DNA of 64,000 bases from a virus. Its lineage: Duplodnaviria > Heunggongvirae > Uroviricota > Caudoviricetes. This document shows positions 8,602 through 52,774 of this stretch, piece by piece. The position numbers and the translations under genes are program-made. The stretch lies in the IMG/VR virus record IMGVR_UViG_3300037851_000345, positions 124,067 through 188,066 of that record; one strand, 5' to 3'. Below the pieces are notes generated by a model that was not told the origin of the DNA, ran no database searches, and was given only the letters and a program-made list of their open reading frames with translations. Numbering within the stretch: position 1 is the first letter of the stretch; the number at the start of each line of letters is the position of its first letter.

Positions 8602-9321
8602 ATGAAGTTTCTCTTGGTAGAACGCTACATTACCTTGATTGCTCCTAAACAGAAAGAAAAGTACAAAGATGTTGTGTGGGATATTCTACAAAAATCCTAC
8701 AAGGATATTGGCGGCTTTTGGACGCATAAAAACCCTGAAGAGTTGATTCAATTCACGAGCATTTGGAAACTTGCAAAGAAAAATGGAGAGATTGTGGCAG
8801 CGGCGATATATCGGGATAAATTCGGGCGCAAGTGCATAGGCCTAGGTTCGAACGGAACTTTTATCGGTATCGAAGCCCTGATGGGGATAATGGCCGAAGA
8901 CCAAAACCCAAAACTCCGCAGGGCATGGATTGAGATTTCTCCCCGCTTGGAAAGAATGTGGAAGAAAATCGGCGGCAACCGTTTGAACACAAACGTTATC
9001 AAGACCTCGATGCGCTCTGCAGATATCCGCCCTGTGGATGAGTACCGCTACGAGCGGCACATTGCAGGGGTCGAACCCCAAGTTAAAAGTGCGTGGGGAT
9101 GGCCTCAATTGTCGATGGAATCTACCAAGTTTAAAGTACTGACTAACCCTTCCTACGATTGGAAGAAACGCCGCAAACCCAAAGCCCCGAAGGCCGAAAG
9201 GTCAATTCCTGACGGAGATTTACCAATGCAAAAGGGTAAATCTTATACGCAAGCCCTTAAAGCCGAACACGAATATCATTACGAAGGGCGCCCGTATGGT
9301 GTGGAAACCCCTCACGTATAG
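8602..9321 (+). CDS. hypothetical protein, MKF-heptapeptide family (MKFLLVE)
   Basis: 239 aa ORF whose N-terminus matches the recurrent M-K-F-x-[IL]-x-E start. Confidence 0.45.
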   Translation: MKFLLVERYITLIAPKQKEKYKDVVWDILQKSYKDIGGFWTHKNPEELIQFTSIWKLAKKNGEIVAAAIYRDKFGRKCIGLGSNGTFIGIEALMGIMAEDQNPKLRRAWIEISPRLERMWKKIGGNRLNTNVIKTSMRSADIRPVDEYRYERHIAGVEPQVKSAWGWPQLSMESTKFKVLTNPSYDWKKRRKPKAPKAERSIPDGDLPMQKGKSYTQALKAEHEYHYEGRPYGVETPHV

Positions 9322-10717: not shown

Positions 10718-11418
10718 TGAAAACTGTTGTAATTAAAAAGTTGTCGATTCCCGCCGTAGTCTGTCCCGTCTGCAATAAGAAGTTTATCAAAACTTCCTCA
10801 GTCATGGTAATCAAAAAGGACATCATCATTCACTCCGACTATCATTGTTGGACTAAGTATTATCAGGATATGCAGAATGGCCTTCCTGAAGAACAGCGAG
10901 AGCGCTTCTGGATACTCGATTTCGATTTTCGTTTCACCTCTGAGTACGAAAAGTCGGATAAAGCTGGCATCACCGAAGGACAGTTCAACGAGTACAAGAA
11001 GATGTTCAAACAAGTCTTTCTTCCTAGCGACCCGATGACGGTCAAGATAGCCATCCGCGATCGGATTTGGCTAGCCGTGGGTCGCAAGTACGCACAACAG
11101 TTGCAGATGATTCACGCCCTGAGCAGGGTTTACGACAAGAAGAAGGACACGTGGCGTTCCAATTTCAAAAAGACCTTTATCCCATCCGTCCTGAATCAGT
11201 TCCGTTCGAAGGGATACCTGAGCAAGAAACAATGGGACTTGGTAGACAGCCTTCTTCATCAGGAAGTTGAAGGAGAGGATAAAGCGTATTTCTATCAGGC
11301 AAAGACCAACGCTTGTGAAATTGAGAACCTTACTCTTCCTGACCGCCTTCGCCATATGCAGAGGAAAAAGAGTTTCATCAAGTGGTACAATAAAAAGAAC
11401 GGCATCGTAGAAGAGTAA
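10717..11418 (+). CDS. hypothetical protein with N-terminal zinc-ribbon (CPVCNKKF)
   Basis: 233 aa ORF overlapping its neighbours. Confidence 0.45.
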   Translation: MKTVVIKKLSIPAVVCPVCNKKFIKTSSVMVIKKDIIIHSDYHCWTKYYQDMQNGLPEEQRERFWILDFDFRFTSEYEKSDKAGITEGQFNEYKKMFKQVFLPSDPMTVKIAIRDRIWLAVGRKYAQQLQMIHALSRVYDKKKDTWRSNFKKTFIPSVLNQFRSKGYLSKKQWDLVDSLLHQEVEGEDKAYFYQAKTNACEIENLTLPDRLRHMQRKKSFIKWYNKKNGIVEE

Positions 11419-11684
11419 TGGATTTAACCGTTGAAGAAAAAAGAAGGCTCTGGAACAAGATACGATTTTTTCGTGTCATGCACCACAAAGCCGTACCACC
11501 TAGTTGTATCTCCTGCCCACACCAGGGTGATGCGGCGTGGGGGGCTTGTTACGGACGAAAGAAATTAACCTACTACGAAATAAAAAACTCTCAACTAGGA
11601 TGGATAGTACTGAAGAAACCTCGACATTGGGGAATAGAAAGAACCTACACAGTTTGCGAAACATTTTTCAAAAGCACTAAATAA
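11418..11684 (+). CDS. hypothetical protein
   Basis: 88 aa ORF. Confidence 0.35.
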   Translation: MDLTVEEKRRLWNKIRFFRVMHHKAVPPSCISCPHQGDAAWGACYGRKKLTYYEIKNSQLGWIVLKKPRHWGIERTYTVCETFFKSTK

Positions 11685-11691
11685 AAGTAGA

Positions 11692-12909
11692 ATGAAACTT
11701 ACAATTATTGAGAAACTTAAAAGACCCCTAACCAGGGAAACATCTTTATTTTCCTACATTGAGGAAAAACCCTTCGAACAAATTAAATCAGAATTGGGAG
11801 CGGAACCCCTGAACATCAAAGTCAACGACAAGGGAAATCTTTACATTTGTAAATACAGCCAAATCGACAGCGATTTCTCGTACAAAATCGTGCGTCAATG
11901 TAGAGGTATTATCCTTGAAAAAGGAACGAACAAAATCATGGCTTACCCTTTCGACAAGTTCTTCAACATTCAGGAAGGCCACGCGGATAAGGTAGATTTT
12001 GGAACGGCATCAATTCAGGAAAAGGTCGATGGTAGTATTATCAAGGTATACTATTATGACAACAAATGGAATGTCGCTACCAACGGGACAATAGATGCAA
12101 AAGATGCGGAGACTGCCGATTCCTTGACAGGAAAGAAGGCAAACTTTTACGACCTTTTCTTAGACGGCATCGAAGAGCAGGGAGTAACCTTTCCTGAACT
12201 AACTGCAAATCTGACTGCGGGACTGACCTACATCTTTGAACTCGTTCATCCCATTACCCGTATTGTTGTCAAATACGAAAAACCTGGCGTGTATTTAATT
12301 GGCATTCGTTGTAACAACACAGGAACAGAAATCGATATTTTTGACGAAAGCAACAAAGAGGTTAAAAAAATCACTTCGCTAGGAATCAAGAGACCCAAAA
12401 CCTTTCAGTTCGCTTCGACAGAGGAAATGATTGCCGCCGCAGAACAGTTGACGAAGGATGAAGAGGGTTATGTCGTTAGGGACAGCGAATTCCGCAGAGT
12501 AAAGGTCAAGTCACCGTTGTACTTGAAACTCCATTATCTCAAGTCCAACAACGAACTGACCCCGAAACATTTCATAGAACTCATTCAGAAAAATGAAACG
12601 GACGAATTCCTAGGAGCCTTCCCCGAATACAAGCCGAAGATTGACGAGATTCGGGAAAAGTTGAAAAAGTATATTTCCGAAGTTCAGAAAGATTGGAAAT
12701 TTTTGGAGAATGCTTTTCTGCTTCAACGCAAGTTTGATTCCAAAGACAGGAAAGAATTTGCCGAAGTTGCAAAGGAGACAATCAACTCAGGGGCCATGTT
12801 CAAGACTTTGGATATGTATTTGCGTGGAGAGAATAATCTACCGAAGTTTATCACTAAATATATTATGGAAATGCAATCGGATAAGTTGCTGATTGCGATA
12901 GGAGTGTAG
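11692..12909 (+). CDS. rnlA: RNA ligase, T4 Rnl1-like (tRNA repair ligase)
   Basis: The KVDGS motif I matches the Rnl1 KEDGSL adenylation lysine. N-terminal CRGIIL..FDKFFN is Rnl1-like. Starts with MKLTIIE, a variant of the MKF motif. Confidence 0.7.
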   Translation: MKLTIIEKLKRPLTRETSLFSYIEEKPFEQIKSELGAEPLNIKVNDKGNLYICKYSQIDSDFSYKIVRQCRGIILEKGTNKIMAYPFDKFFNIQEGHADKVDFGTASIQEKVDGSIIKVYYYDNKWNVATNGTIDAKDAETADSLTGKKANFYDLFLDGIEEQGVTFPELTANLTAGLTYIFELVHPITRIVVKYEKPGVYLIGIRCNNTGTEIDIFDESNKEVKKITSLGIKRPKTFQFASTEEMIAAAEQLTKDEEGYVVRDSEFRRVKVKSPLYLKLHYLKSNNELTPKHFIELIQKNETDEFLGAFPEYKPKIDEIREKLKKYISEVQKDWKFLENAFLLQRKFDSKDRKEFAEVAKETINSGAMFKTLDMYLRGENNLPKFITKYIMEMQSDKLLIAIGV

Positions 12910-12927
12910 AAATATGGAGGATGGTAG

Positions 12928-13191
12928 GTGGTCTGGACCCCCGACAAACAGAAGCGGTTACAAGCACTTGGATTTTCTTACAATGAAGATAATGACAAAT
13001 GGACTAAGGTTGAAAAAGACCACGATGAATTTGTTTGGTCTACTGCAAGTTTTTTGTATTGGTTTAGTGCCGAAACAACGAATGGTGGTAAAATCAGGGG
13101 AAGTAATAAATTCCCAATTATGGACTTCGATGCCCTCATCATTTTTCTCAGGGCAATTCAGGCGATGGAGAGGTTAGAAAATGAAATTTGA
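12928..13191 (+). CDS. hypothetical protein
   Basis: 87 aa ORF; the overlapping 12914 ORF is less plausible. Confidence 0.3.
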   Translation: MVWTPDKQKRLQALGFSYNEDNDKWTKVEKDHDEFVWSTASFLYWFSAETTNGGKIRGSNKFPIMDFDALIIFLRAIQAMERLENEI

Positions 13192-13531
13192 AGTAGTAGG
13201 ACAAACACCAGAAAGGTCAACCAAGGAAGAGTTACACAAACTCCACGACAACCTTGTACATTTGATAATCAAATACGGTAAGCGATTTGACAAAAAACAC
13301 GGCAACTGGATAAAGTTGGAATTGGAAGGAAAGAAATTTTTACAGTTGGACACTTGGAATAGCAATCCTCAACTTAAAATGGGTAGTGGAGAATACGAGT
13401 ATTGGACAGGGTTTGAGCCGAGAAAGGCCTTGATTAATTTCGGAATTGACTTCGGCGGGTCTCAAACTTATGCCTCCGAAAACCAATACATAGAAACCAT
13501 CAAGGATATTGAATCGTTATACGGAAAATGA
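13181..13531 (+). CDS. hypothetical protein, MKF family (MKFEVVG)
   Basis: The ATGA start-stop overlap chain with its neighbours suggests translational coupling. Confidence 0.45.
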   Translation: MKFEVVGQTPERSTKEELHKLHDNLVHLIIKYGKRFDKKHGNWIKLELEGKKFLQLDTWNSNPQLKMGSGEYEYWTGFEPRKALINFGIDFGGSQTYASENQYIETIKDIESLYGK

Positions 13532-13977
13532 AATTCCAAATTGTAGAAACCATTTTAAAACAAGGGGTAGAAAAACCCACCTTTAAAATAGTTCACAAAC
13601 AGGAACGTCCAATTTCAGGAACTGATAGTGATTATGATGTTATTAGTTATAAAATGGAAATGTATATATCGGGGCAAAAAATTGGACAGGTAATATCGGG
13701 ATATAATGAAGAAGAAGAGCAACCAGAATCAGACGTAGATATTATCGAAAGCCAAAGAAACAAAGGATACGGTAAAATATTACTGTTAAAAAAAATACAA
13801 ATGGATTATGAATTATTGGGTAGACATTCCATGGATGCTAGAGGATTAACCGAAGACATGGGTAGAGTATACAACTCATTAGAAAGAGACGGATATATAC
13901 AGTCAAAATTTTTCGGTATTTATGAATTGACTCCAAAAGGTCAAAAGTATTTAGATAGGGAATATCCAGAAATATGA
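13528..13977 (+). CDS. hypothetical protein, MKF family (MKFQIVE)
   Basis: NKGYGKILL resembles an acyl-CoA-binding GNAT motif, but weakly. Confidence 0.45.
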   Translation: MKFQIVETILKQGVEKPTFKIVHKQERPISGTDSDYDVISYKMEMYISGQKIGQVISGYNEEEEQPESDVDIIESQRNKGYGKILLLKKIQMDYELLGRHSMDARGLTEDMGRVYNSLERDGYIQSKFFGIYELTPKGQKYLDREYPEI

Positions 13978-14462
13978 AATTTAAAATAGCAGAAAAAGTT
14001 TTGACGACATATACAGGTTGCGCGGGATATTCAACGACAAATGAAACTTATATAATTTATAAAAATCCATCTGTAAGTGATTTACAAGCCAAGGACGAAA
14101 CAAAAGATAATCGAGGAATTATTGATAGTAAGGGAAATCTTTTTGTAGAGGCCATGTGGATAAAAGAAGGTGGCAATCCCGAAACGGATTTCTCTAATAT
14201 GTTACACGGAAGTTTGTTACGAGTTCTACATAAAAATGGGGAATGTTTAGATTTGATAGACGGCGACCTAAGAGGGATTCATAATTCTTCTGGATTAAAA
14301 AACGGATTATTTGTTATAAAAAACTTTGGAAATTCCAAGAAATTTTACATTGCTGAATATGATGAAGATGTTCTTAATAACCCTAAAAGTAAAAAATTAA
14401 TCAGAAAACATTTCGATAAGTGTAAAAAGAAAAACCCCCACTTTGTTTTTTTAGTAACATGA
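13974..14462 (+). CDS. hypothetical protein, MKF family (MKFKIAE); paralog of minus-strand 39306..39791
   Basis: Shares YIIYKNPS, NRGIIDSKGNLFVEAMWI and KKKNP blocks with the 39306 ORF. Confidence 0.5.
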   Translation: MKFKIAEKVLTTYTGCAGYSTTNETYIIYKNPSVSDLQAKDETKDNRGIIDSKGNLFVEAMWIKEGGNPETDFSNMLHGSLLRVLHKNGECLDLIDGDLRGIHNSSGLKNGLFVIKNFGNSKKFYIAEYDEDVLNNPKSKKLIRKHFDKCKKKNPHFVFLVT

Positions 14463-14620
14463 AATCTAAAACCCTAACCGATTACAAAATCCTGTACTAT
14501 TCATTAGTGGAACGATACGGCAAAAAAATTGCGGACGAAAAAATAAAAAAATTGATAAAAACGAACAAACAGAAAAATAACGAAAATCATAAATAGAAAC
14601 ACAGGAGAAAAATAAATTAA

Positions 14621-15724
14621 ATGTTCAGAACAGAAATTTCTACACCACAAACGAAGGAGGAGTCGCCTGATGGCGAGCCGCCGCTTGTTAAAGATTGGAA
14701 CGATTGGACTTGGCAAATTAAGAACTCTATAACTTCATTAGAAGAATTATCCAAATACATTACCCTGACGGACGAAGAAAGGCAGTCAGGTAATCTTCCA
14801 CTCCGAATCACGCCTTACTACGCACGACTGCTTTCAAATCCCGCAATCCGAAAGTGCATCGTGCCGACTGCAAGGGAATTGGAAATTTCCCTTTGCGAAC
14901 AAGAGGATTCCTTGGCTGAAGAAAGGGACAGAAAAACTGAACACATCATCCACCGCTACCTCGACAGGGTTCTCTTTCTCACTACCAACATCTGCGCTAG
15001 CAACTGCCGCTACTGCACCCGCAGTCGGCTTGTCGAGAACAGCGACCACTCCATCAGCCACTCTTGGGGCGAAAGTTTGGAGTACATCAAGAACCACTCC
15101 GAAATCAGGGACGTTCTGCTTTCAGGCGGCGACCCCTTGCTCTTGAACGATTCGCAACTCACTTACCTTTTGGAAAAACTCTACGAAATCAAGCACGTAG
15201 AAATGGTCAGGATTGGGACAAAGGTTCCTGTCGTGCTTCCGCAAAGAATCACGAAACGTCTTGCTGATATCCTGTCTAGGTACAGCCCCCTTTACATCAG
15301 CATCCACTTTACACACCCTGCCGAACTGACCGTGGAGACGAGACAGGCCTGTAGGATGCTCACGCACGAAGGCCACGCTTTCCTAGGGAGTCAGACGGTT
15401 TGTTTAAACGGCGTAAATGACAACCCCGAAGTGCTGGGGATGTTGTTCAAGCAACTTTTAACTGTGGGGGTTAAACCCTACTACTGCTACGCTTGTGACT
15501 TGGTTCCAGGCTCTAGCCACTTTCGTGTGCCGATGGGAAGGATGTTAGGAATCATCGACAATTTAAGAGGTTGGATTTCAGGCTACGCCATCCCGCACTT
15601 TGTAATTGACGGCCCAGACGGTAGGGGAAAGACCCCGATTTTACCTGATTACTTTATCGGGCAGACAGCCGAAAATTACCTTTTCAGAAACTACAAAGGC
15701 GAAAAGTTCACCTACCCCGCATAA
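14621..15724 (+). CDS. KamA-family radical SAM aminomutase (lysine 2,3-aminomutase-like)
   Basis: CASNCRYCTRS is the CxxxCxxC cluster in KamA context. LSGGDPLL and the PLP/Zn-binding region layout are KamA-like. Confidence 0.7.
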   Translation: MFRTEISTPQTKEESPDGEPPLVKDWNDWTWQIKNSITSLEELSKYITLTDEERQSGNLPLRITPYYARLLSNPAIRKCIVPTARELEISLCEQEDSLAEERDRKTEHIIHRYLDRVLFLTTNICASNCRYCTRSRLVENSDHSISHSWGESLEYIKNHSEIRDVLLSGGDPLLLNDSQLTYLLEKLYEIKHVEMVRIGTKVPVVLPQRITKRLADILSRYSPLYISIHFTHPAELTVETRQACRMLTHEGHAFLGSQTVCLNGVNDNPEVLGMLFKQLLTVGVKPYYCYACDLVPGSSHFRVPMGRMLGIIDNLRGWISGYAIPHFVIDGPDGRGKTPILPDYFIGQTAENYLFRNYKGEKFTYPA

Positions 15725-16207
15725 TCACCACGGATTGACTACTAGAAGGTGGTTTTTTGGTGGGTTTCAGGCCCGTGGTGGCGTTTTTATCCCTGCCCCC
15801 ACTATTTTTTATTATCAGTTCTGTAACAAGTCGTGTTATATAATTTATTTAAAGGAGAAATAAATGGAAAAGAAGAATTTATGTTTCACAAGGGTTGCCC
15901 CCTTTCCAACAAGCACAAACTGTACCTTGTCTTACACGCCGAAATGTGCAGTCAAGTTGAAGATAATCTCTTCACTAGAGATGCCAAGCTAAATTCAGCC
16001 AAAATGAAAGAAGATTGGATTTCTTTAAACTCTACAAATCCGTACAAATTTCCCGATTGCGCAAATTGTACCTTGAATGTGATATGAGGATATTCGGGTT
16101 GGTCAGGATATTCATGCCGTACAGCGGAAGCCTATCGCAAGCCCAATGTTCTTGATAAATTCAAGAATTGGGTGCGATATATGCGCCATGTATTTTAAAA
16201 CAAACGC

Positions 16208-16220
16208 TGTATGGTATAAT
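16208..16220 (+). promoter_or_regulatory. extended -10 promoter element TGTATGGTATAAT
   Basis: Upstream of the 16261 gene. Confidence 0.4.
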
Positions 16221-16260
16221 ATTAGTGTAAGTAAATTTTATCTTGGAGGATAAAAGAAAA

Positions 16261-16506
16261 ATGACAAAAACGATTACGAGCAAGGTGATTGAGGCCATCA
16301 TCAGCGCACCAAAGGCAAAGGTCAATCGCAGAACGATGCACGTTCTCGACCATGCTGAGATTCTGGGTCTTTCGAAATCCGAAGATTCGGCTACCCGCAG
16401 ACTTCGTGAGAAGGCAAACCAGTTTGGTGGCTACGCCTACGAACTGAAGGACAACAGGTATCTGATTGACCCGCAGTTCGTGAAGTGGCTGAAGAAGAAT
16501 CAGTAA
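16261..16506 (+). CDS. hypothetical small protein
   Basis: Start moved to the Met after SD ggaggataaaag. Preceded by an extended -10 element and followed by a strong terminator. Confidence 0.45.
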   Translation: MTKTITSKVIEAIISAPKAKVNRRTMHVLDHAEILGLSKSEDSATRRLREKANQFGGYAYELKDNRYLIDPQFVKWLKKNQ

Positions 16507-16530
16507 TTCTTTTTCAGTTAAATTGGGTCA

Positions 16531-16561: not shown

Positions 16562-16574
16562 AGGATAAAGTCAG

Positions 16575-16841: not shown

Positions 16842-16848
16842 AGGTAGA

Positions 16849-17268
16849 ATGAAATTTAGAATCGTGGAATCTTTGGAACAGGAAGCCTTGCAATTTGATA
16901 TGCCTGAAGACTTCGTAAAAAGTTTTCCGAAAGTCTATCACGGCACAAATACCGAATTTCGAAAGTTCAACCCGAAGAAGGGTGCGCAGGGAACCATTTG
17001 GTTCACGAATGATAAGGACACAATCATCAGAGGGGAGTCGGGTGCGCAAGGGACGAAGTACGTAATGGAGAGGTATCTCACAGGGAAAAATTGGGCAGGA
17101 TGGAATGAGTACGACAAATACATGATAGTCCAATTAATACAAATGGGATACGATGGGGTCAAACTTCCCGCAGGGGAACACAACGACTATATGCTTTTTG
17201 ATAACAAAAATATTTACACGGAAAAAGAATTGATTAATCTTTGGAAGAAGGTACGAAATGGAATTTAA
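16849..17268 (+). CDS. hypothetical protein, MKF family (MKFRIVE)
   Basis: 139 aa ORF. Confidence 0.45.
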   Translation: MKFRIVESLEQEALQFDMPEDFVKSFPKVYHGTNTEFRKFNPKKGAQGTIWFTNDKDTIIRGESGAQGTKYVMERYLTGKNWAGWNEYDKYMIVQLIQMGYDGVKLPAGEHNDYMLFDNKNIYTEKELINLWKKVRNGI

Positions 17269-18646
17269 AAACTTTGGAGACATCCCGCCGCAAGCCCTTG
17301 AAATTGCGCAACTTTTTAATGACGCAGGACACGAAGCCTACCTTGTAGGCGGCTGTGTCAGAGACATCATGCTGGGCAGACAGCCGAAGGATTGGGATTT
17401 TACAACCGATGCTCTTCCTAGAGAGACGGAAAAAATCCTGACCGATGCGGGAATCAAGAATTACCCCAAAGGCGAAGATTATGGCACGTGGGCGGCAATC
17501 ATGGACAAAGAAGAGTTTGAAATCACCACCTACAGGCTTGAAGCAGACTACTCCGATGCCCGTAGGCCGAAAGCCGTATCGTTCTCCAAAGACCTGAAAG
17601 AAGATTTGGCTCGTAGGGACTTGACAATCAATGCAATGGCGTTCGATCCGTTGACAGGTGAACTTGTTGACCCCTTTGGCGGTCAGGAAGATTTGGAAAG
17701 CGGCACGTTGAAAGCAGTAGGCCGTCCTGAAGAACGCTTCCACGAGGACGCACTCAGGCTGATGCGGATAATCCGCTTCGCAAGCCGCTACGGGTTTAAA
17801 CTAGACCCAGACACGGAAAAGGCAATCAAACGCAACGCCGAAAGATTACGCTACGTTTCGTCTGAAAGAATCAAGGACGAACTTGACGGAATCCTGTTGA
17901 CCCCGAAGCCGTCTGTAGGAATCCAAATGCTTCACGACCTTGGACTGCTAAAAATAATTCTACCTGAAGTAGACGTTCTTGACAGCGTTCCACAACAAAG
18001 TCCGTGGCATCACAAGAACGTTTTCGGACACACGATGGACGTGGTTGACGGCACACCCGCACGTCTAGATGTTCGTTGGGCAACCTTGCTCCACGACATC
18101 GGCAAGGAGAAGGCAAGGGTCAGGGACGTGACGGGACGAGACCGCTTCATCGGACACGACAAAATCTCCGCAGAGTTGACAGAACCTATTCTACGCCGCC
18201 TGAAATTCAAAAATGAAGCAATCAAGAAAATCGTCAGGATGATTCTGTTGCATCAAGCCGAACCTGAGAAGCGCAACAAAATCAAGCACTTCATCAGGCA
18301 CTTGGGCGTGGACTACTTGGAAGATTGGAAGGCGATGCGCCTGGCGGATATCGGTGCGCACAAGCCTGAGAAAATTGCGGCGGGGATGGAGAAGTACGAG
18401 TCTAGAGCCGCACAGATTGACGATATCCTAGCCAAGAAAGAGCCGTACATGATTTCCCAACTCGACATCAGCGGTGATGATTTACAAGAGGTCGGAGTCC
18501 CGAAAGGCGTAATCATCGGCAAAGTGCTGAGAGGCTTACTCGACCTAGTGATAATGAACCCTGAAAAGAACAAGAAGGAGTTCTTGAAGCGTTGGGCGCA
18601 AAACAACTGGAAGCGGATTGAAAAAGAAATAAATAACAGTAGATGA
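17258..18646 (+). CDS. cca: CCA-adding tRNA nucleotidyltransferase with C-terminal HD phosphohydrolase domain
   Basis: GGCVRD..DWDF and RRDLTINAMA are class II nucleotidyltransferase motifs. HD..HDIGK is an HD domain. Confidence 0.85.
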   Translation: MEFKNFGDIPPQALEIAQLFNDAGHEAYLVGGCVRDIMLGRQPKDWDFTTDALPRETEKILTDAGIKNYPKGEDYGTWAAIMDKEEFEITTYRLEADYSDARRPKAVSFSKDLKEDLARRDLTINAMAFDPLTGELVDPFGGQEDLESGTLKAVGRPEERFHEDALRLMRIIRFASRYGFKLDPDTEKAIKRNAERLRYVSSERIKDELDGILLTPKPSVGIQMLHDLGLLKIILPEVDVLDSVPQQSPWHHKNVFGHTMDVVDGTPARLDVRWATLLHDIGKEKARVRDVTGRDRFIGHDKISAELTEPILRRLKFKNEAIKKIVRMILLHQAEPEKRNKIKHFIRHLGVDYLEDWKAMRLADIGAHKPEKIAAGMEKYESRAAQIDDILAKKEPYMISQLDISGDDLQEVGVPKGVIIGKVLRGLLDLVIMNPEKNKKEFLKRWAQNNWKRIEKEINNSR

Positions 18647-19143
18647 AATTTAAATTGATGCATCCTACATTCTATATGGCAGTTGGAATCAGCGGCTCAG
18701 GTAAAAGTACAATTCTCGACAAAGTGTTTGAACGAGAAGTAATCGTTGAACCCGATGCAATCCGCAAAGAACTTACAGGTTCGGTCAGCGATCAAAGCAA
18801 AGACTTTGTGGTGTGGAAAATAACAGCAGACAGAATAAAGAAAAATCTCGAAACAATGGGTCTTGCGGTTCTAGATGCCACCAACACCAAGTCTTTCCTG
18901 CGCAATCAATTCCTGAAGAACATTCCCGCAGGAGTCCACAAGGTAGCCATCATCTTTCAGCCGCAAGGTACGGACGAGGAAATCGTGGACAAACTCTACG
19001 GAAGAGTGCAGGGTGATTTAACAAGTGGCAAAGACAGAAGCGCAGTACCGAAAGAAGTAATTGCACGACAACTAACTCAGTTTAAGAACGGTTTACAAAA
19101 TATTGAATCCCAGTTCGATGAGGTACAAACAATTCCTTCGTGA
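18643..19143 (+). CDS. P-loop kinase, polynucleotide 5'-kinase-like
   Basis: AVGISGSGKST is a Walker A motif at the N-terminus. Its size and tRNA-repair context fit a T4 Pnk kinase domain. Starts MKFKLM. Confidence 0.5.
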   Translation: MKFKLMHPTFYMAVGISGSGKSTILDKVFEREVIVEPDAIRKELTGSVSDQSKDFVVWKITADRIKKNLETMGLAVLDATNTKSFLRNQFLKNIPAGVHKVAIIFQPQGTDEEIVDKLYGRVQGDLTSGKDRSAVPKEVIARQLTQFKNGLQNIESQFDEVQTIPS

Positions 19144-21403: not shown

Positions 21404-22177
21404 ATGAAATTTATATTATTAGAAATACAAAGTAGACAAGAATATTTAAAAAATCCTAAACTTTGTAAATTTTGTCAGAAACCACTCCCGTATGAACATC
21501 ATACTGTTAAACAATTTTGTAGTAAATCGTGCGCGGCACAATTTAACAATAGTAACAGGATATTCAACCCAAAGGAAGATAAGCGAACAAAATACATTCC
21601 TTGTACTAGATGTGGGAAAACAACACTTATTAATATAAGAACTAATCCTAATAAGTCCTTTTGCCCTGATTGTAAAGAAATAATGAAACAACAAAAAAGA
21701 ACTAGAAAAAATACAAAACGGTTCAAACACACGTGTGCTTCTTGTGGTCGGGATTTTTTATCTTCTAAACAGAATACCAAATATTGTAGTGTATCCTGTG
21801 GGGCTAAACATATGATGTCTACAGGGAAAATAAAGTCTTGGAGTACGAGAAATATAAAAAGTTATCCCGAAAAATTCTTTGAAAGAGTATTACAAAATAA
21901 TAATCTATCTTATGAAATGAATAAGCCTGTTACTTTTAATGGTAAAACTTATTTTTTGGATTTTTATTTTGCTGATAAAAATATAGATTTAGAAATTGAT
22001 GGTAAACAGCACGATTATCCTGATAGAATTACTAGTGATTTAATTAGGGATAAGATTTTAAAGAAAAATGGGATAAAAGTGTTTAGAATTAAATGGAAAT
22101 CCATAAATACAGAAGATGGTAAGAACGAAATAAGAAAGAATATTCAAAACTTTTTGGATTTTTACAAAAATGATTGA
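21404..22177 (+). CDS. homing-endonuclease-like protein: Cys-rich zinc fingers + C-terminal DUF559/Vsr-like PD-(D/E)XK nuclease domain
   Basis: C-terminal YFLDFYF..LEIDGKQH..D..RD..L...G..V.R fits the DUF559 restriction-endonuclease-like fold. Paralogous to 29556 and 26653. Starts MKFILLE. Confidence 0.55.
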   Translation: MKFILLEIQSRQEYLKNPKLCKFCQKPLPYEHHTVKQFCSKSCAAQFNNSNRIFNPKEDKRTKYIPCTRCGKTTLINIRTNPNKSFCPDCKEIMKQQKRTRKNTKRFKHTCASCGRDFLSSKQNTKYCSVSCGAKHMMSTGKIKSWSTRNIKSYPEKFFERVLQNNNLSYEMNKPVTFNGKTYFLDFYFADKNIDLEIDGKQHDYPDRITSDLIRDKILKKNGIKVFRIKWKSINTEDGKNEIRKNIQNFLDFYKND

Positions 22178-34654: not shown

Positions 34655-36577
34655 TTATCGTTTTCTAGTAATGCGCCCGAAAGGTTTCCACATCGAAGTA
34701 ACATCCCCCATATCCTTGATGCTAATTTCGTTGTACAAGAGAGGGACTTCTCCTTCCGTCTTCAACTCTTCCATATTCTCTTTCTGCATCTGTTTGCGGA
34801 AGGATTCGTATGCGTTCCTAGAAATGTTTGCCCCTAGAATGGCTTCTAAGTATTGCTGTTCTCTAGATATCAAGCCATCTATCAAAGGAGTAATTGACAT
34901 AACGTCCTTCATTCGACTCCTGTCCGACATCATCCACGTTGCGAACTTCAAGGCAGTAATCAGGTCAAAGTGACTCGTGCCGTCATATCGTGGATGACTA
35001 ATATTTTCCTTACCCTTCCTATCTTCAAATAGCCGCATTTCTTCAAGCAAGAATTCGTCCACGACAGACACCATCCCCTTATCCACAACTGTCTTCAAGT
35101 TGTTTTTTAGGTCGATATTGTTCTTCCTGTCGGACTTAAATCCCCACGGGATGTAACCACGCCTCTTTGCCCCGCCAAGGGAACGAAATACCCGTCTCAC
35201 TAGGTAGTTGACCATCTTCTCATTGTCCCCTGAAAACTTATCCACCAAGAACTGCTTGAACATATCGTTCTTCTTGGAAAACTCGTTAGTGGTGATTTCC
35301 TCAATCAAGTTTTCGAAACGGACTGAGAACGTGCGCCCAACATCGTTCAATTCAAAAATCAGGAACCACTTGTCGTTCAATTGAGTCAGTAAGAAGATGA
35401 ACAGGAAGTTAAAGAAGTCATCGGGTAAAGTGTTTGCGTTCATGAACTGAAACGCTTGCTTAACCGCGAATGTTTCGAGGCTTGTCTCTCCCTGAAGTTT
35501 TATCTTACGCACGGAGAGGCCTATTACGGTGGAAAAGTTAAGTCCCTTGCCTTCGGAAATATCAATGCCGACCAAAAACGACTGGTCCCCAACAGTATCG
35601 TAAATCTTCATCGGTTCGCCTGTGTAGTTCTTATTTGGAACCCATTCGAACAGCGGCGGTTGGTATTGAAACCTAGCGATTACGTCAGGGTTAAAGAATC
35701 GAGCAACACCCGCCTGAATCTCAAACGAGTTGTCAAATTCCTGAGCGAATCGTTCCTCTCCGTTCTTGCCGCCGACGGCAAGGTCGCGGATAGTTTGCTC
35801 TCTCCACTTTTCATCCCTGCCTTTGCCTCTTGGGTCAACGTCCTTCCAATGAATCTGTTCCAAAATCCACTTCGGGTCGTAGAACGGGTTCGGCTCTCCT
35901 TTTATTGTCTTTTGAGTTTTACGCCACAGGTCGTAGAAGAGTTCTTTGCCGTTCGGGGTCGAACTAACAATCAAGCCGCCGTCCATCGATTGCATGATAG
36001 GGTAGTTAGAAGTCCAAAACTCACTCTGCAATTCAGGTGTAGGCAACCACGCAAATTCGTCCAAGTACAGAAGCGTCAAAGATTCCGAACGCAAACCTGA
36101 CTTGCTCGTCGCGGCACAGAATACGATGGTTCCGTCTTCCAATTCCAATTCAAACTTGCTGTCGCTTGTTGAACTTGATAGCCTGAACATATCAGGAAGT
36201 TTTTCATACATCCCGCTGAATCTGCGGAATATTTTTCTTGCGTTATCCTTCTTGTTTGCAAGGATGCCGATATTGGAAGAGGACGTGAAAGTAATAAGCC
36301 ACAGGATGAATACTAGAACAAGCGTGGTCTTTGAAGACTGACGGGGAGAGAGTAGGACAACATACTTGTTCTTCCAATTGTTCTGTAAGTCTACGAGTAT
36401 CTTTTTTTGCTTCGGATAGATAACATCAGATAGCCGCAACGTTCCCCTTGCAGGGTTGTATATTTTAACGTGTTCGACGAATTTCAAAATATCCTGAGAA
36501 CACTCGTAGAAAGTCTTCAATTCATCAACTGTCAAGGTCGGCAAGGGGGCGCGAACTTTTGTTGCTATTTTAGCCAT
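34655..36577 (-). CDS. terL: terminase large subunit (TerL)
   Basis: VVLLSPRQSSKTT is a Walker A-like P-loop and LLYLDEFAW a Walker B. The 640 aa size and the C-terminal nuclease-domain acidic residues fit TerL. Confidence 0.65.
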   Translation of the reverse strand: MAKIATKVRAPLPTLTVDELKTFYECSQDILKFVEHVKIYNPARGTLRLSDVIYPKQKKILVDLQNNWKNKYVVLLSPRQSSKTTLVLVFILWLITFTSSSNIGILANKKDNARKIFRRFSGMYEKLPDMFRLSSSTSDSKFELELEDGTIVFCAATSKSGLRSESLTLLYLDEFAWLPTPELQSEFWTSNYPIMQSMDGGLIVSSTPNGKELFYDLWRKTQKTIKGEPNPFYDPKWILEQIHWKDVDPRGKGRDEKWREQTIRDLAVGGKNGEERFAQEFDNSFEIQAGVARFFNPDVIARFQYQPPLFEWVPNKNYTGEPMKIYDTVGDQSFLVGIDISEGKGLNFSTVIGLSVRKIKLQGETSLETFAVKQAFQFMNANTLPDDFFNFLFIFLLTQLNDKWFLIFELNDVGRTFSVRFENLIEEITTNEFSKKNDMFKQFLVDKFSGDNEKMVNYLVRRVFRSLGGAKRRGYIPWGFKSDRKNNIDLKNNLKTVVDKGMVSVVDEFLLEEMRLFEDRKGKENISHPRYDGTSHFDLITALKFATWMMSDRSRMKDVMSITPLIDGLISREQQYLEAILGANISRNAYESFRKQMQKENMEELKTEGEVPLLYNEISIKDMGDVTSMWKPFGRITRKR

Positions 36578-36582
36578 TTATT

Positions 36583-37335
36583 TTACTTCCTTTTTAATTT
36601 GTCTTCCAACTCTTTTTTCAGGTTCATATATAAACCATATAATCGTTTCTTAATTTTTTGTTGATTTTTTGGAGTTAAATTTTCAAAAAATTCTTTAAAT
36701 GTACCACTAGTATATTTTTTAAAATCTTTCATGAAACTATCGAACGTTTCTAAATAAGTTTCATAAAAATCTTGTTCCTTATCTTTGTTATATAATTCTA
36801 AGGTGTAATAAAAAATGTCTTCATAATTTGAAACTGCCTGTTGATAATAAGCATTCAATTCTAATGGATGATTAACATATTTAAATATACCTTCGCGCTT
36901 GAAAATTTTCTCCGTACCTAATGCGGCATGAAGAGTTTTTTTATTCTTAAATCGTTTAAGGTCTAAATAATGTATAAATTCATGAATAAATGACTCTTCT
37001 ATCCACCCATCTTTATTATCTTTTTGTACTTGTCTTATTAAATCTGGTTTATTAGGAAGAAAAATTTTAATTGTCGTTGTTTCATCCTCTAAATTATCTA
37101 CATCTTTCTCTGCTACGGCCTGATACCATTTTTTTGGATTTTTAGATGGGAATATTTGTAAAATCAAATCAGAATATTCACCATCAATATCTTTAATCTC
37201 TAATTCGTTTCCAGATGCATTAGAATATTTATACCATTTTTCTTTTGGAGTTTTAATAATTTTTTTCCAAAGGTCGAAAGCCTTCTGTCTATAAATTCTG
37301 TCTTGATTTATAGACTCCATTACCCTGAATTTCAT
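36583..37335 (-). CDS. hypothetical protein, MKF family (MKFRVME)
   Basis: 250 aa ORF. Confidence 0.45.
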   Translation of the reverse strand: MKFRVMESINQDRIYRQKAFDLWKKIIKTPKEKWYKYSNASGNELEIKDIDGEYSDLILQIFPSKNPKKWYQAVAEKDVDNLEDETTTIKIFLPNKPDLIRQVQKDNKDGWIEESFIHEFIHYLDLKRFKNKKTLHAALGTEKIFKREGIFKYVNHPLELNAYYQQAVSNYEDIFYYTLELYNKDKEQDFYETYLETFDSFMKDFKKYTSGTFKEFFENLTPKNQQKIKKRLYGLYMNLKKELEDKLKRK

Positions 37336-39064: not shown

Positions 39065-39316
39065 TTAAGACTCCTTTAAATCACATCCACCCGTGGAAGA
39101 AACTGATGGGGTGAATCCATTAGGCCATCCTTTTTGGGGTGGAACTCTATTTTGGGGTGGAACTCTATTTTGGGGATGTTCCCACCAGCCGCCATCAGTA
39201 TTAATCTTTGTTTTTAAATATTTACATTGTTTAGGGAATGTACAGGTTTCTTCTTGATTTGGGTTTCTACCACCTGTTGTAAATCCTTCTACAACTTCAA
39301 CAATTTTAAATTTCAT
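39065..39316 (-). CDS. hypothetical protein, MKF family (MKFKIVE) with PQNRVP tandem repeat
   Basis: 83 aa ORF. An 18-nt direct DNA repeat at about 39113-39165 encodes PQNRVPPQNRVPPQ. Confidence 0.4.
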   Translation of the reverse strand: MKFKIVEVVEGFTTGGRNPNQEETCTFPKQCKYLKTKINTDGGWWEHPQNRVPPQNRVPPQKGWPNGFTPSVSSTGGCDLKES

Positions 39317-39791
39317 TGTGTCGTACTCCTAATATATTTCTAAAATAAAAACCCAAATAAGGGTTCTTCTTTTTTGCCTTCTTAAAAACTTCATTCACCG
39401 CATCCTCGTCCAAAAGTAATTCACTTTCATAAGACTCTGCCAAATAAAAATCATTACTAGTACCCTGACGTTGTACACAAACCATATATTTAGTAGAATC
39501 TGAACAGCCTTTCCACCAGTCCTCATCAATATTAGATAATTTACCATGTTCTTGTAATCGATTTATTAAGTGGTTATGTATGATGTTAGAATAAGATTCA
39601 TACTCTTCAGAACTGTCGCCTATCCATTTGGCTTCCATATATAAATCACCATTTATATCGATAATGGCTCGATTATTTTTTGAATCCTCTTTAGAGTTTA
39701 ATTCCTGACTTGTTGGATTTTTGTAAATATAATAAGTTTTATTACCCCATCCGAAAGAAGTAAAAACACTTTCAAGTAGTTTGAATTTCAT
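39306..39791 (-). CDS. hypothetical protein, MKF family (MKFKLLE); paralog of 13974..14462
   Basis: Shares YYIYKNPT, NRAIIDINGDLYMEAKWI and KKKNPY blocks with the 13974 ORF. Confidence 0.5.
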   Translation of the reverse strand: MKFKLLESVFTSFGWGNKTYYIYKNPTSQELNSKEDSKNNRAIIDINGDLYMEAKWIGDSSEEYESYSNIIHNHLINRLQEHGKLSNIDEDWWKGCSDSTKYMVCVQRQGTSNDFYLAESYESELLLDEDAVNEVFKKAKKKNPYLGFYFRNILGVRHNEI

Positions 39792-40492
39792 TAGTAATTT
39801 CCAAACGGGTTATCCCCTGGCGTGTAGGTATGTTGTTCTTCACACTTCTGTTCGATTCCTGCCGTTATACCCACAGGGTTGCCGTTCGCATCAGTTGCAC
39901 CTGGTGGATTCGATTTGCCTAGGATGTATTGTACTGGCAAACCCTGCTCGTCAGGAGCCCAGCCAGGCTCGGTGATATCTTCCGTAACCCTCTCGTCTTC
40001 GCCGCTGTCTTGCCAAATCTTCGCCGTCAATTTCCAAGTCAACTTGTTGCCCCAAAAGTTTGCATCGCTGTCAACGAGGTTTACGACTTCAAACATCAAC
40101 TTAACGTGTTCGATGTAAAAGAGGTCTCCGATGGAAGGAGATAAAGTTTTCGTAGTGTCCTTCCAATATGTCTTTTCGATAATCAGGTTGACTTCATCGA
40201 TGATTTGATTTCCGTATCTTTGGTTCTCAATCATTTCCTCTAGGTATTGGAACACGGCTTTGATTGCGATAGGTCTGCACCATTTCTTGTTTGCCTTCTC
40301 CAAGAAAACAGGGTCCATTCCCATTTCAGCATCTTGGAGCCTGTACCAATAGACAAAGAGACCGCCGATTTTATTGTATTCTTGGAGAAAACTAATCATG
40401 GTTTTCGTATCGACATTTTCGTTGATATGGAAGTAATCCATATCCAATGGCTTCTCGGTGTCAAACGAATCAGGACGGTTTTCGAAAGGCAT
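39791..40492 (-). CDS. hypothetical protein
   Basis: 233 aa ORF. Confidence 0.45.
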   Translation of the reverse strand: MPFENRPDSFDTEKPLDMDYFHINENVDTKTMISFLQEYNKIGGLFVYWYRLQDAEMGMDPVFLEKANKKWCRPIAIKAVFQYLEEMIENQRYGNQIIDEVNLIIEKTYWKDTTKTLSPSIGDLFYIEHVKLMFEVVNLVDSDANFWGNKLTWKLTAKIWQDSGEDERVTEDITEPGWAPDEQGLPVQYILGKSNPPGATDANGNPVGITAGIEQKCEEQHTYTPGDNPFGNY

Positions 40493-42410: not shown

Positions 42411-42454
42411 TTTTCAGACCACTCCTACACATATTTATTGTTTTATTACAACTT

Positions 42455-52258: not shown

Positions 52259-52774
52259 ATGAAATTTAAAAAACTCCCCCGCAAGTTGCGCATCTTCGAT
52301 TTTGACGATACGTTGGCAACTACCGATGCTAAAATCAGAATCTCGAACAAAGGCCTATCCTTATCGACACAGGAATTTGCCGATTACAAAGTCGAACCTG
52401 ACGATAAAATTGACTTTTCTGATTTTGAGCAAGGGGGATTGATTAATCCGAAACCTACCAATTTTCTGAAGACCGCCTTCCGCAAAATAGTGGCCGGTGA
52501 TTCGGATATTATGATTTTAACCGCTAGACCTAACACAAGTGGAATACGAGAGTTCCTGTCGAAGTGGGTTGACCCTAACCGCCTGATAATCGTGGGGGGA
52601 AGAAAGAAAGCCAGGGGCGAGGAATTAGCAAAATTAAAAAAGAACGCAATTCTGTCCCGATTAGATGATTACGATGATGTGCGGTTTTACGATGATAGCG
52701 AAAGAAATATTGAATCCATTAAATCGTTGGAAAGTCCGAAAATCAAAACACAACTAGTTGTCGTTAAAAAGTAA
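52259..52774 (+). CDS. HAD-superfamily phosphatase (candidate polynucleotide 3'-phosphatase)
   Basis: RIFDFDDTLATTD is HAD motif I (DxDxT). Begins MKFKKL. Could be the phosphatase partner of the 18643 kinase. Confidence 0.5.
   Translation: MKFKKLPRKLRIFDFDDTLATTDAKIRISNKGLSLSTQEFADYKVEPDDKIDFSDFEQGGLINPKPTNFLKTAFRKIVAGDSDIMILTARPNTSGIREFLSKWVDPNRLIIVGGRKKARGEELAKLKKNAILSRLDDYDDVRFYDDSERNIESIKSLESPKIKTQLVVVKK

Follow-up and report, generated by a model that had tools for sequence, protein, structure and literature searches.

A probable leader peptide for packaging of phage proteins

Phage proteins that are injected together with the DNA act before phage gene expression and are prime candidates for counter-defence; to our knowledge, only a handful of them have been characterised. 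In phage T4, each of the internal proteins Ip1-3 is an inhibitor of GmrSD-type restriction enzymes, and Alt targets the host RNA polymerase, which it modifies. The internal proteins of T4 and the T-evens (Ip1-Ip3, with Ip4-13 in relatives) are unrelated to one another and carry a short N-terminal leader ending in I/L-x-E; IPII and IPIII begin MKTYQEFIAE/A (cleavage sites are marked by a slash). Leaders of 6-10 amino acids ending in [IL]xE are also found on Alt (MELITE) and on the core proteins gp67 (MEGLIE), gp68 (MLLIPE), gp22 (MLKEQLIAE) and gp24 (MAKINELLRE). Targeting of IPIII involves two aromatic residues, at positions 4 and 7, a pattern that is missing from the starts of Alt, gp67 and gp68. 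Cleavage in T4 follows the rule L/I-X-E and removes leaders that range from 7 to 65 residues, and the leader of Alt, a packaged ADP-ribosyltransferase, comprises 6-7 aa (PMC9026906). In the giant phages phiKZ, 201phi2-1 and SPN3US, many head-internal proteins are cut after Glu by a gp21-related protease (PMC9026906). There the cleavage motif is S/A-X-E, and the propeptides are long and do not form a uniform shared tag, unlike in the system described here.

The DNA analysed here, a 64-kb stretch referred to as the window, is from an uncultured, distant T4-like phage. At least 11 of its genes begin with a heptapeptide, MKF[K/R][I/L/V]xE or a close variant, which is probably this clade's version of the capsid-targeting, protease-removed leader found on the internal, Alt and core proteins of T4. 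As in the T-evens, the leader ends in I/L-x-E and precedes unrelated proteins, a gp21-family protease is encoded (here read in the relative L041), and the tagged genes look like late, non-essential cassettes in variable hotspots, with leader and cargo separable. The leader differs in sequence and is shorter (7 residues, as against 10 in the T4 internal proteins), and it has one aromatic residue (Phe3, replaced by Leu or Ile in some orthologs) rather than the two of the IPIII leader. T4 has 3 such genes, compared to the 11 or more in 64 kb here, and the T-even cargo consists of small basic inhibitors, whereas the predicted tagged proteins of the window are 8-46 kDa in size with pI values of 4.5-9.8 and include enzyme-like ones. 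The T4 internal-protein leader system being already known, the novelty is likely to lie in the different leader and in an unusually large cargo set with enzymes.

The heptapeptide tag

A first-pass annotation had listed 14 tag-like N-termini, ascribed the motif to at least 12 unrelated proteins, and put the number expected by chance at well under one. All 14 were reproduced by translation (ORFs are named by their first coordinate). The strict pattern M-K-F-[KR]-[IL]-x-E occurs in six ORFs (13974, 16849, 37669, 38671, 39065 and 39306), and the relaxed pattern M-K-[FL]-x-[ILV]-x-E in 11, adding 8602, 11692, 13528, 21404 and 36583. Three degenerate variants lack Glu7 (13181, MKFEVVG; 18643, MKFKLMH; 52259, MKFKKLP), and a minority of the tags have Val at position 5. 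All-against-all blastp upholds the mutual non-relatedness of the tagged proteins, with a single related pair (13974 and 39306, 34% identity), and so rules out common ancestry for all but these paralogs; the figure of 12 is too generous, as it takes in weak variants as well as the paralog pair. Blastp also joins the tagged 21404 with an untagged protein, 29556.

The expectation of rarity was borne out. Of 105 called genes (an approximate total from a simple longest-ORF heuristic; the earlier count was about 110), 11 have K-[FL]-x-[ILV]-x-E directly after Met1, while 0.012 N-terminal cases are predicted from its frequency at internal positions (2 of 17,632). At the DNA level, the window matches the pattern ATGAARTTYNNNNTNNNNGAR at 10 places, every one an ORF start, compared to 0.08 in shuffled sequences (maximum 2), and ATGAAATTY has 17 matches where 5.0 are expected. 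Glu7 is present in 10 of 13 MKF starters and in 8 of 93 other genes (Fisher p = 3e-7; the MKF starter 52259 was called in this test from an upstream GTG and reads MMKF). Position 5 is I, L or V, with codons ATT, CTA, TTA and GTA that differ at the first base, while position 6 is unconstrained, with eight different residues. The constrained residues are thus F3, I/L/V5 and E7, and constraint reaches residues 7 and 9. The earlier argument for peptide-level selection, made from Glu7 and the hydrophobic residue at position 5, is borne out by these numbers.

One further candidate, the radical-SAM gene 32894 (MHILLVE), was rejected. Phe3 is missing, and the L001 ortholog lies directly behind an early-type TGnTATAAT promoter, so this N-terminus is taken to be a native first strand.

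The tagged genes and their relatives

The tagged genes and variants on the plus strand are as follows.

8602..9321, plus strand: tagged (MKFLLVE), 239 aa, basic, no family match; late-promoter-like cTAAATAA 12 nt upstream (8590-8597)
11692..12909, plus strand: weaker tag (MKLTIIE), T4-type RNA ligase 1, 405 aa; late-like motif at 11677-11684
13181..13531, plus strand: degenerate tag (MKFEVVG, Gly for Glu7), 116 aa; stop overlaps the next start
13528..13977, plus strand: tagged (MKFQIVE), 149 aa, no family match
13974..14462, plus strand: tagged (MKFKIAE), 162 aa; the paralog of 39306
16849..17268, plus strand: tagged (MKFRIVE), 139 aa, ADP-ribosyltransferase-like; ATAAATA 9-15 nt upstream (16834-16840)
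18643..19143, plus strand: degenerate tag (MKFKLMH), P-loop kinase (AAA_33); ATAAATA at 18629-18635
21404..22177, plus strand: tagged (MKFILLE), 257 aa, zinc ribbon and DUF559/Vsr-like endonuclease
52259..52774, plus strand: degenerate tag (MKFKKLP), 171 aa; ATAAATA 7-13 nt upstream (52246-52252)

The three genes 13181, 13528 and 13974 lie back to back, in that order. An RNA ligase had been claimed for the tagged set, and 11692 is indeed one; its ortholog in L050 begins MQFEILE. Against Pfam ART-PolyVal, ORF 16849 scores 30.1 bits where the cut-off is 31.2; protein P0010, which is identical to it, has a precomputed PF18760 assignment. Orthologs of 16849 begin MKLRIVE and MRIRLIE.

On the minus strand, a variable cassette slot lies between a neck-like gene and the large terminase gene.

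39791..40492, minus strand: untagged neck-like gene, weak T4_neck-protein match; upstream border of the slot
39306..39791, minus strand: tagged (MKFKLLE), 161 aa; absent from L001, whose homology stops at the ATG of this gene
39065..39316, minus strand: tagged (MKFKIVE), 83 aa; absent from L001
38671..39063, minus strand: tagged (MKFKLTE), DUF6876, 130 aa
38154..38660, minus strand: inserted cassette, likely start MKLKE; absent from L001
37669..38058, minus strand: tagged (MKFKIAE), 129 aa, DUF5661 domain and acidic tail
36583..37335, minus strand: tagged (MKFRVME), 250 aa, HEFIH motif; between a small-terminase-like gene and TerL
34655..36577, minus strand: untagged T4-type large terminase (TerL); downstream border of the slot

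Protein 37669 had been described as Ocr-like, a label that its make-up does not support. Its layout is that of T4 gp67 (leader, small helical part, acidic tail); no homology to gp67 is detectable, hhalign of the DUF5661 profile against gp67 giving a probability of 1.3%. PHROGs returned no match for ten proteins (nine tagged or tag-variant proteins and ORF 19835), and Pfam none for six of these ten. The sole fold match of the DUF6876 model was 2r41, whose function is unknown, and the DUF5661 model had none; a literature search found no mention of either family.

The window phage has no close cultured relatives. Megablast of window positions 13000-20000 against INPHARED found no match among cultured phages, and the nearest cultured TerL is 26% identical. 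The tag is found on at least nine metagenomic contigs, with tagged genes in L001-L004, L015, L026, L030 and L050; the family of 13974 is also in L003, L004 and L015, and in L030 tags are present on 9 of 16 genes. A scan of IMG/VR for the 21-mer coding MKFKI[AV]E returned only 35 stretches. By these sequence comparisons, the tag is a trait of the clade that sits on changing cargo.

Other lineages have other shared starts. Around gp13-gp15 of L046 and L048, MDLxxKYLxE or MRFKxYLxE opens about 11 of 17 genes; the Asp at codon 2 of the former is not what an expression-optimised start would have. Twenty-six distant DUF5661 proteins from other T4-like lineages begin M-x-K/T-F-x-x-F/Y-I/L-x-E, similar to T4 IPIII.

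Separation of tag and cargo

Comparison with untagged homologs indicates that the tag is added onto its cargo. DUF6876 homologs outside the clade (P0006-P0009) start about 7 residues later, without the tag, and DUF5661 cores start at 'GRAxEK' after many different leaders. Within the window, the alignment of tagged 21404 with its untagged paralog 29556 begins at residue 19 of the former and residue 7 of the latter, so that the tag lies on 12 additional N-terminal residues. The tag of the kinases is located ahead of the first strand and the P-loop. AlphaFold2 models of the DUF6876 and DUF5661 proteins likewise place the tag outside the folded domains: pLDDT is below 50 over residues 1-14 of the former, while the latter has a weak predicted helix at residues 3-10 (mean pLDDT 63 over residues 1-10) ahead of a domain with pLDDT of 94-97.

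Prohead protease and cleavage rule

The window phage has a 223-kb genome with its head module outside the window, and the protease and capsid genes were read in L041, a relative with 97% TerL identity. Its head module encodes a portal protein, a protease, a scaffold-like protein and a gp23-type capsid protein. The protease (L041:2015-2656) matches Peptidase_S77 with E = 3.4e-25, and its alignment with T4 gp21, which spans the GELDHP and SSRGLG blocks, shows 43% identity; the protease itself begins MSKQVLME. The first-pass annotation had called for a search for such a protease, and for [IL]xE sites in the capsid and scaffold proteins, and both are present in L041. In silico, the sequence L-R-E/S of the major capsid protein aligns exactly with the T4 gp23 cleavage site L-T-E/A, and the 304-aa scaffold-like protein, encoded at L041:4153-5067, contains 18 [IL]xE sites. 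The tag ending also agrees with the T4 gp21 consensus, as had been proposed, with I, L or V at position 5 (P3), a free position 6 (P2) and Glu7 (P1).

The capsid, portal and scaffold proteins of L041 start without the tag (MYGTGEQ, MARMTKE and MKKKSTE, respectively). No small protein of the head module has the MKF tag, and two of them share a different motif. A search for contigs encoding the first window gene found none, and the right flank (L039) contains small ORFs only and no head genes.

Late-promoter context

Going upstream from any of the 11 tagged genes of the window, the first promoter-like motif encountered is of the late type, as judged from its position and its resemblance to the T4 sequence TATAAATA. 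The same motif (aATAAATA) precedes the portal, protease and scaffold genes and the neck operon, at -26/-27 of their starts, and the genes of the interleaved early-type TGnTATAAT units are untagged. The minus-strand slot belongs to one such late unit, in which five tagged genes lie between the neck and terminase genes:

42432..42438, minus strand: late-promoter-like ATAAATA, context aacaATAAATAtgtgtAGGAG; heads the unit ending in TerL, in the order PAS protein, 119 aa, neck-like, five tagged cassettes, TerS-like, tagged gene, TerL

These motifs suggest that the tagged genes are expressed late, concurrently with prohead assembly. In the AT-rich contig L030, the motif is too frequent to be diagnostic. 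A scan of window positions 1-20000 for the sigma-70 consensus gave counts barely above those of shuffled sequences and was left unused.

Alternative explanations

The first-pass annotation had also considered an AT-rich start preference or a module boundary, and part of this holds, since synonymous sites in the tag are A/T-rich and breakpoints do fall at tags; the Glu7 preference is left unexplained. Three codons are used more often in the tag than in the genome (AAA, 85% vs 66%; TTT, 90% vs 62%; GAA, 95% vs 76%), and this A/T bias together with Lys-Ile at codons 4-5 argues that an RNA or translation component is also present. In E. coli reporters, the highest yields came from K/N-I at codons 4-5 (AAVAUU) and KFS at codons 3-5 (PMC6920384), and with the general ramp motif, K/N-Y/I at codons 3-5 (Verma et al. 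2019, PMC6920384), the tag shares Lys-Ile at 4-5 and A/U-rich codons. Furthermore, the late motif of several tagged genes is only 5-9 nt from the ATG, which would leave little or no room for a leader or Shine-Dalgarno sequence. One might then expect the tag to be nothing but a portable translation-start module, a seven-codon expression ramp (AAA at codon 2, Lys-Ile at 4-5, A/U-rich unstructured RNA) that carries no peptide signal and either comes along with newly gained accessory genes or is grafted onto them. This seems improbable. The ramp covers codons 3-5 only, in any gene class, and predicts neither a Glu7 preference next to a free position 6 nor an aliphatic-only position 5. A ramp should be favoured on highly expressed genes, but the abundant late capsid, portal and scaffold proteins have no tag, and neither do the terminase genes. 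Genes 341 and 29556 are untagged despite equally close late motifs, many tagged genes have ordinary AGGAG sites, and the sister lineage with MDLxxKYLxE keeps [FY]-L-x-E behind an Asp codon.

The breakpoints raise a different possibility, that the tag is only a recombination handle, 20-27 nt of microhomology for cassette shuffling between co-infecting phages, with peptide conservation as a by-product. The window and L001 differ by an indel whose two ends are the ATGs of successive tags, and the 175-aa gene insertion is bordered by a duplicated junction (flanking cassette 38154, 'LPSEY*', a ribosome-binding site and ATGAAATT). In L050, a perfect 49-nt repeat ends exactly at the GAA of Glu7. The neck-to-TerL slot has different contents in the window, L001, L002, L015 and L030, its breakpoints lying at tags, and the slot after RNA ligase 1 differs between the window and L050. 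However, DNA identity between tags is only 78-96% over 23-27 nt, and the substitutions are mostly synonymous or conservative, a pattern that marks selection on the peptide. The tag is also retained on conserved orthologs that do not shuffle (DUF5661, DUF6876 and the gene between TerS and TerL); for this last gene, 36583, homology to L001 spans the tag and then disappears. The T-even ip loci shuffle in a like manner, there because their leader is functional (PMC12373910), and a role as handle alone is very unlikely. With the constraint acting on the peptide, the signal could still have another reader, for example as a degron, as a chaperone or membrane tag, or in docking to the tail, baseplate or neck. 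The predicted helix at residues 3-10 in one model would suit such a reader, as would the different shared motif of the head-module proteins and the clustering of tagged genes by neck and terminase genes rather than head genes. On the other hand, nothing identifiable could serve as that reader, the one protease specificity known for this phage family is matched by the [ILV]-x-E ending, and the same ending is found on three leader types and on all of the T4 core proteins, so that another reader is an unlikely explanation.

A probable leader for capsid targeting and its implications

The reading of the tag as a capsid-targeting, protease-removed leader is supported by the computational tests able to refute it, all of which favoured it. 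According to this model, the tagged genes would be transcribed late, at one time with those for head, neck and terminase. As the prohead assembles, the protein would be held on its scaffolding core by the leader, which probably forms a short amphipathic helix anchored by the hydrophobic Phe3, and the gp21-type protease would then cut after Glu7. The mature protein would be kept inside the capsid and would enter the next host together with the DNA, where the cargo may act against host defences. Because leader and cargo are separable, recombination at or beside a resident leader could swap in new cargo genes and so give rise to the variable cassette slots.

Some features of the cargo speak against packaging or differ from T4. 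The list is unusually long, at 11 or more in 64 kb, and RNA ligase 1, the kinase and the endonuclease could work equally well from the cytoplasm; T4 RNA ligase 1 is not packaged. The tagging of an ADP-ribosyltransferase-like protein parallels the short leader on T4 Alt and speaks for the model; the protein here has 139 aa, compared to 682 aa for Alt, and the two have no sequence homology.

It is a more tentative proposition, and a nearly even call, that uncultured T4-like phages pack a larger and more enzymatic cargo than T4, with a minimal 7-residue leader and lineage-specific 'dialects'. If so, a dozen or more proteins per 64 kb would be delivered, among them an ADP-ribosyltransferase, RNA ligase 1, a kinase, a nuclease and a metallopeptidase-like protein, and this would include enzymatic cargo (RNA repair, ADP-ribosylation, nuclease) that T4 does not deliver in this way. 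The T4 leader mechanism would extend to distant lineages in shortened forms, with MKFKIxE as the dialect here, MDLxxKYLxE/MRFKxYLxE in another lineage and MKTYQEFIAE in the T-evens. A 7-residue tag would also be attractive as a minimal means of loading foreign proteins into engineered capsids. If the tag is a packaging leader, it would provide a simple sequence handle for listing the injected proteins of uncultured phages, and repertoires of injected effectors could be read from metagenomes by way of the lineage's leader on late genes.

A shared N-terminal heptapeptide

Translation confirmed all 14 N-terminal sequences from which the first-pass annotation had proposed a shared tag, M-K-F-[KR]-[IL]-x-E. 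This strict form is matched by 6 of the 14 listed ORFs and the relaxed form M-K-[FL]-x-[ILV]-x-E by 11 of 14; ORFs 13181, 18643 and 52259 (named by coordinate) have the MKF start without glutamate at residue 7 (Glu7). Among 105 window genes, called heuristically, K-[FL]-x-[ILV]-x-E directly follows Met1 in 11, compared with 2 of 17,632 internal positions, and Glu7 is present in 10 of 13 MKF starters versus 8 of 93 other genes (p = 3e-7). The DNA pattern ATGAARTTYNNNNTNNNNGAR occurs 10 times in the window (shuffles expect 0.08), always at an ORF start. The further claim that the tagged proteins are unrelated held for nearly all of them, the exception in an all-against-all blastp being the linked pair 13974/39306. 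Mature sizes of the tagged cargo run from 8 to 46 kDa and pI from 4.5 to 9.8, and the family matches are diverse.

Family matches among tagged or tag-variant proteins
11692: RNA ligase 1 (Rnl1)
16849: ART-PolyVal-like
21404: DUF559/Vsr-like endonuclease
37669: DUF5661
38671: DUF6876
18643: P-loop kinase, degenerate tag

Tagged gene 39065-39316 contains a perfect 18-nt tandem duplication (39132-39167) that yields the repeated peptide PQNRVP-PQNRVP.

The phage and its relatives

The window encodes a T4-type large terminase (TerL; 34655-36577, minus strand), a weak match to a T4 neck protein, 24 tRNA genes, a CCA-adding enzyme and a DNA ligase. TerL has its nearest cultured counterparts in Caulobacter phage Cr30 and cyanomyophages, at about 26% identity, and a megablast of positions 13000-20000 gave no nucleotide match in INPHARED. 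Proteins identical to window ORFs were found on a 222,974-bp metagenomic contig, and IMG/VR supplied several further relatives on shorter contigs besides the following.

Main IMG/VR relatives
168.8-kb contig (loci L001, L040, L041): TerL 97% identity
43-kb contig (L002): TerL 79% identity
239-kb contig (L050): Rnl1 76% identity

Two tRNAs of the 24-gene array (22221-31538), at 24756-24831 and 25929-26001, have the anticodon TCA and a tRNA-SeC call, which makes them possible UGA-reading suppressors; the window ORFs appear intact under code 11. Auxiliary genes encode a lysine-2,3-aminomutase-like radical SAM enzyme (14621-15724) and a B12-binding radical SAM enzyme (32894-34051). Three tandem small paralogs at 62790-63466 (+), 37-55% identical, start MIP[KN][TI]CP[LI]SDK, and similar CPxxDK starts recur in L001 and L024. 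A flagellin-like gene lies amid tagged cassettes in another relative (L026:3604-4434).

The tag is a clade trait on changing cargo. L001 and L002 have other genes in the slot that runs from the neck-like gene to TerL, yet these start MKFKIAE, MKFTVVE, MKFIVLE or MKFKIVE. In all of IMG/VR only 35 stretches matched the 21-mer encoding MKFKI[AV]E, and those belonging to relatives have several tagged genes apiece. On one 9.25-kb contig (L030), 9 of 16 genes are tagged; the tagged starts of L050 are MQFEILE (Rnl1), MKLRIVE (twice), MKFKLLE and MEFTLLE.

The tag as an add-on to changing cargo

The tag is an N-terminal add-on to the cargo domains. Clade DUF6876 orthologs retain MKF-x-L-x-E, while four homologs outside the clade (P0006-P0009, 37-52% identity) start about seven residues later, without it. 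DUF5661 cores begin with a conserved GRAxEK, preceded by many different leaders. The alignment of tagged endonuclease 21404 with its untagged in-window paralog 29556 begins at residue 19 of the former and residue 7 of the latter, and in the kinases the first strand and P-loop come after the tag. In the AlphaFold2 model of the DUF6876 protein, residues 1-14 score below 50 in pLDDT and adjoin a domain near 90; in that of the DUF5661 protein, a low-confidence helix at residues 3-10 (mean pLDDT 63 over residues 1-10) precedes a domain at 94-97.

Two zinc-ribbon endonuclease-like paralogs of 21404 lie inside the tRNA array, each directly preceded by a late-type motif, and are probably homing endonucleases:
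26653-27375 (+)
29556-30476 (+)

Homology between the window and L001 ends at the ATG of tagged 39306 and restarts at the ATG of tagged 38671. A 175-aa window-only gene (38154-38681, minus strand) has on both sides a duplicated junction consisting of LPSEY stop, a ribosome-binding site and ATGAAATT; this gene and the upstream DUF6876 gene end in identical LPSEY-stop codons (38154-38681, minus strand, and 38058-38100), and the duplication marks an insertion. In the gene between the small terminase gene (TerS) and TerL, homology with L001 runs through the tag and then diverges. In L050, an 80-aa cassette is bracketed by a perfect 49-nt direct repeat that ends with the GAA of Glu7. Such breakpoints and repeats at tags argue that cargo bodies are swapped behind a resident leader, as has also been proposed for the T-even ip loci. 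We read cassette exchange as a consequence of leader modularity and not as the tag's primary function.

Predicted late expression

The T4 late promoter is TATAAATA. In L041 a similar motif, aATAAATA, lies 26-27 nt ahead of the start codons of the portal, protease and scaffold genes. The motif also precedes the neck operon and, in L015 from another clade member, TerL; other genes have TGnTATAAT extended -10 promoters. For all 11 tagged window genes, the nearest upstream promoter-like element is the late-type motif. Five tagged genes lie within a late unit that begins with a PAS protein gene, includes the neck-like gene and extends to TerL. In the left arm, late-type units led by a tagged gene (8602, 11692, 16849, and 18643 with its degenerate tag) alternate with early-type units that have no tag (6579-8597, 9752-11684, 16243-16841 and 19172-19790). 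Going by these motifs, the tagged genes would be expressed late, a precondition for prohead incorporation.

In some genes just 5-9 nt separate the late-promoter-like ATAAATA from the ATG (window 8590-8604, 29543-29558 and 52245-52261; L001 about 11912-11935); if transcription began there as it does at T4 late promoters, the resulting mRNAs would have little or no 5' leader. The neck-to-terminase unit opens with a gene (40860-42410, minus strand) for a 516-aa protein that contains three or four PAS domains and is conserved in L001, L002 and L015; a sensor-type domain within a structural operon is unusual.

The prohead protease and T4 leaders

Walking along the 168.8-kb relative to L041 located the head module.

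Head module of L041
T4 portal
Peptidase_S77 prohead protease (E = 3.4e-25)
166-aa protein
3160-3531: SpeD, S-adenosylmethionine decarboxylase
179-aa protein
304-aa scaffold-like protein, 18 [IL]xE sites
gp23-type capsid protein (E = 3.6e-81)

A gp21-like protease and [IL]xE sites in capsid and scaffold, both suggested as searches by the first-pass annotation, are thus present in L041. Over 127 residues that take in the GELDHP and SSRGLG blocks, the protease shares 43% identity with T4 gp21, and its start, MSKQVLME, is close to gp21's MNEPQLLIE. The capsid protein has an LRE|S site: by BLASTP, S-L-R-E|S-T aligns with F-L-T-E|A-E of T4 gp23, the known maturation site. In the T4 genome, every prohead-core protein begins with a leader of 6-10 residues that ends in [IL]xE.

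Leaders of T4 prohead proteins
IPII, IPIII: MKTYQEFIAE
Alt: MELITE
gp67: MEGLIE
gp68: MLLIPE
gp22: MLKEQLIAE
gp24: MAKINELLRE

T4 leaders span 7 (Alt) to 65 (gp23) residues, and cleavage follows the rule L/I-X-E (PMC9026906), which tag positions 5-7 fit, as had been claimed. In IPIII, residues 4 and 7 are targeting determinants and residues 8 and 10 processing determinants (PMC9026906). By analogy, Phe3 of the tag would be the hydrophobic determinant, with Ile5 as P3, position 6 as a free P2 and Glu7 as P1; the clade tag has a single aromatic residue where IPIII has determinants at two positions.

The head module's own small proteins have a different motif from the tag. A second shared motif, (MKLT)[KR]EDIQK[FY][AG]T..EKK.L.E, also ending L-x-E, occurs at window 19835-20938 (+), L041:2660-3160, L041:3522-4061 and L002:6365-8137. 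It is N-terminal in the window's 367-aa acidic late protein and in the 166-aa protein that the relative encodes between its protease and scaffold genes; in two further proteins it is internal. It may represent a second, longer propeptide class.

Selection on peptide or RNA

An AT-rich initiation preference had been offered as one alternative explanation, and an RNA-level A/T signal does exist. At synonymous sites the tag has a higher A/T content than the genome (AAA 85% versus 66%, TTT 90% versus 62%, GAA 95% versus 76%; ATC 7% versus 29%), and in E. coli Lys-Ile at codons 4-5 has been documented to give high yields (PMC6920384). A pure expression feature nevertheless fails as an explanation, because abundant late proteins lack the tag, untagged genes exist with equally close promoters, the constraint reaches residues 7 and 9, and a sister lineage's leader has Asp at codon 2.

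Among 39 tagged starts from seven loci, pre-selected for F3, I/L/V/M5 and E7, position 2 is mostly Lys and position 4 mostly Lys or Arg. Position 5, where the filter allowed I/L/V/M, is Ile in 27, Leu in 9 and Val in 3, with codons ATT, ATA, CTA, TTA, GTA and others; position 6 holds eight different residues, and Val, Ile or Leu occupies position 9 in 56%. In orthologs of the ART-like protein, position 3 is Leu or Ile. Conservative first-base changes at position 5 and a free position 6 beside a near-constant Glu7 indicate peptide-level selection.

Parallel leaders in other T4-like lineages

Among 120 listed DUF5661 proteins, 19 carry the clade heptapeptide and 26 start M-x-[KT]-F-x-x-[FY]-[IL]-x-E (e.g., MSKFKNYITE, MRTFRNFITE, MKKFREYLTE), matching T4 IPIII in residue type at positions 4, 7, 8 and 10; in another 14, an [IL]xE ends within residues 5-12. 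The three classes together make up 49%; among internal 12-mers from these proteins the figure is 17%. A second uncultured T4-like lineage (L046 and L048; TerL 38% identical to cyanomyophages) has two such DUF5661 genes flanked by gp13 and gp15 homologs, and about 11 of 17 neighbouring genes start MDL[IV][ED]KYLxE or M[RK]F[KR]xYLxE, a parallel leader dialect (L046:7662-16106 and L048:2001-7787). Three lineages thus have in common that many late proteins, otherwise unrelated, carry a short leader with the ending aromatic-[IL]-x-E.

The small-to-large terminase slot of a cultured cyanomyophage, Synechococcus phage S-SRM01 (L044, 5830-9749), likewise holds inserted genes; one encodes a 609-aa protein that includes a DUF5661 domain, and the annotation of another is virion structural protein.

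Meaning of the tag

The tag is probably a shortened, 7-residue counterpart of the T4 leaders that target proteins to the capsid and are then removed by a protease. The proteins would bind the core, be cleaved after Glu7, be retained in the virion and be injected. Confidence stops short of certainty because the head module described is that of a relative, the cargo set is large and enzyme-rich, the tag has only one aromatic residue, the head module's small proteins carry their own motif, and the A/U bias at synonymous sites is real. The chief use of the tag would be as a sequence handle for finding injected proteins in uncultured T4-like phages.
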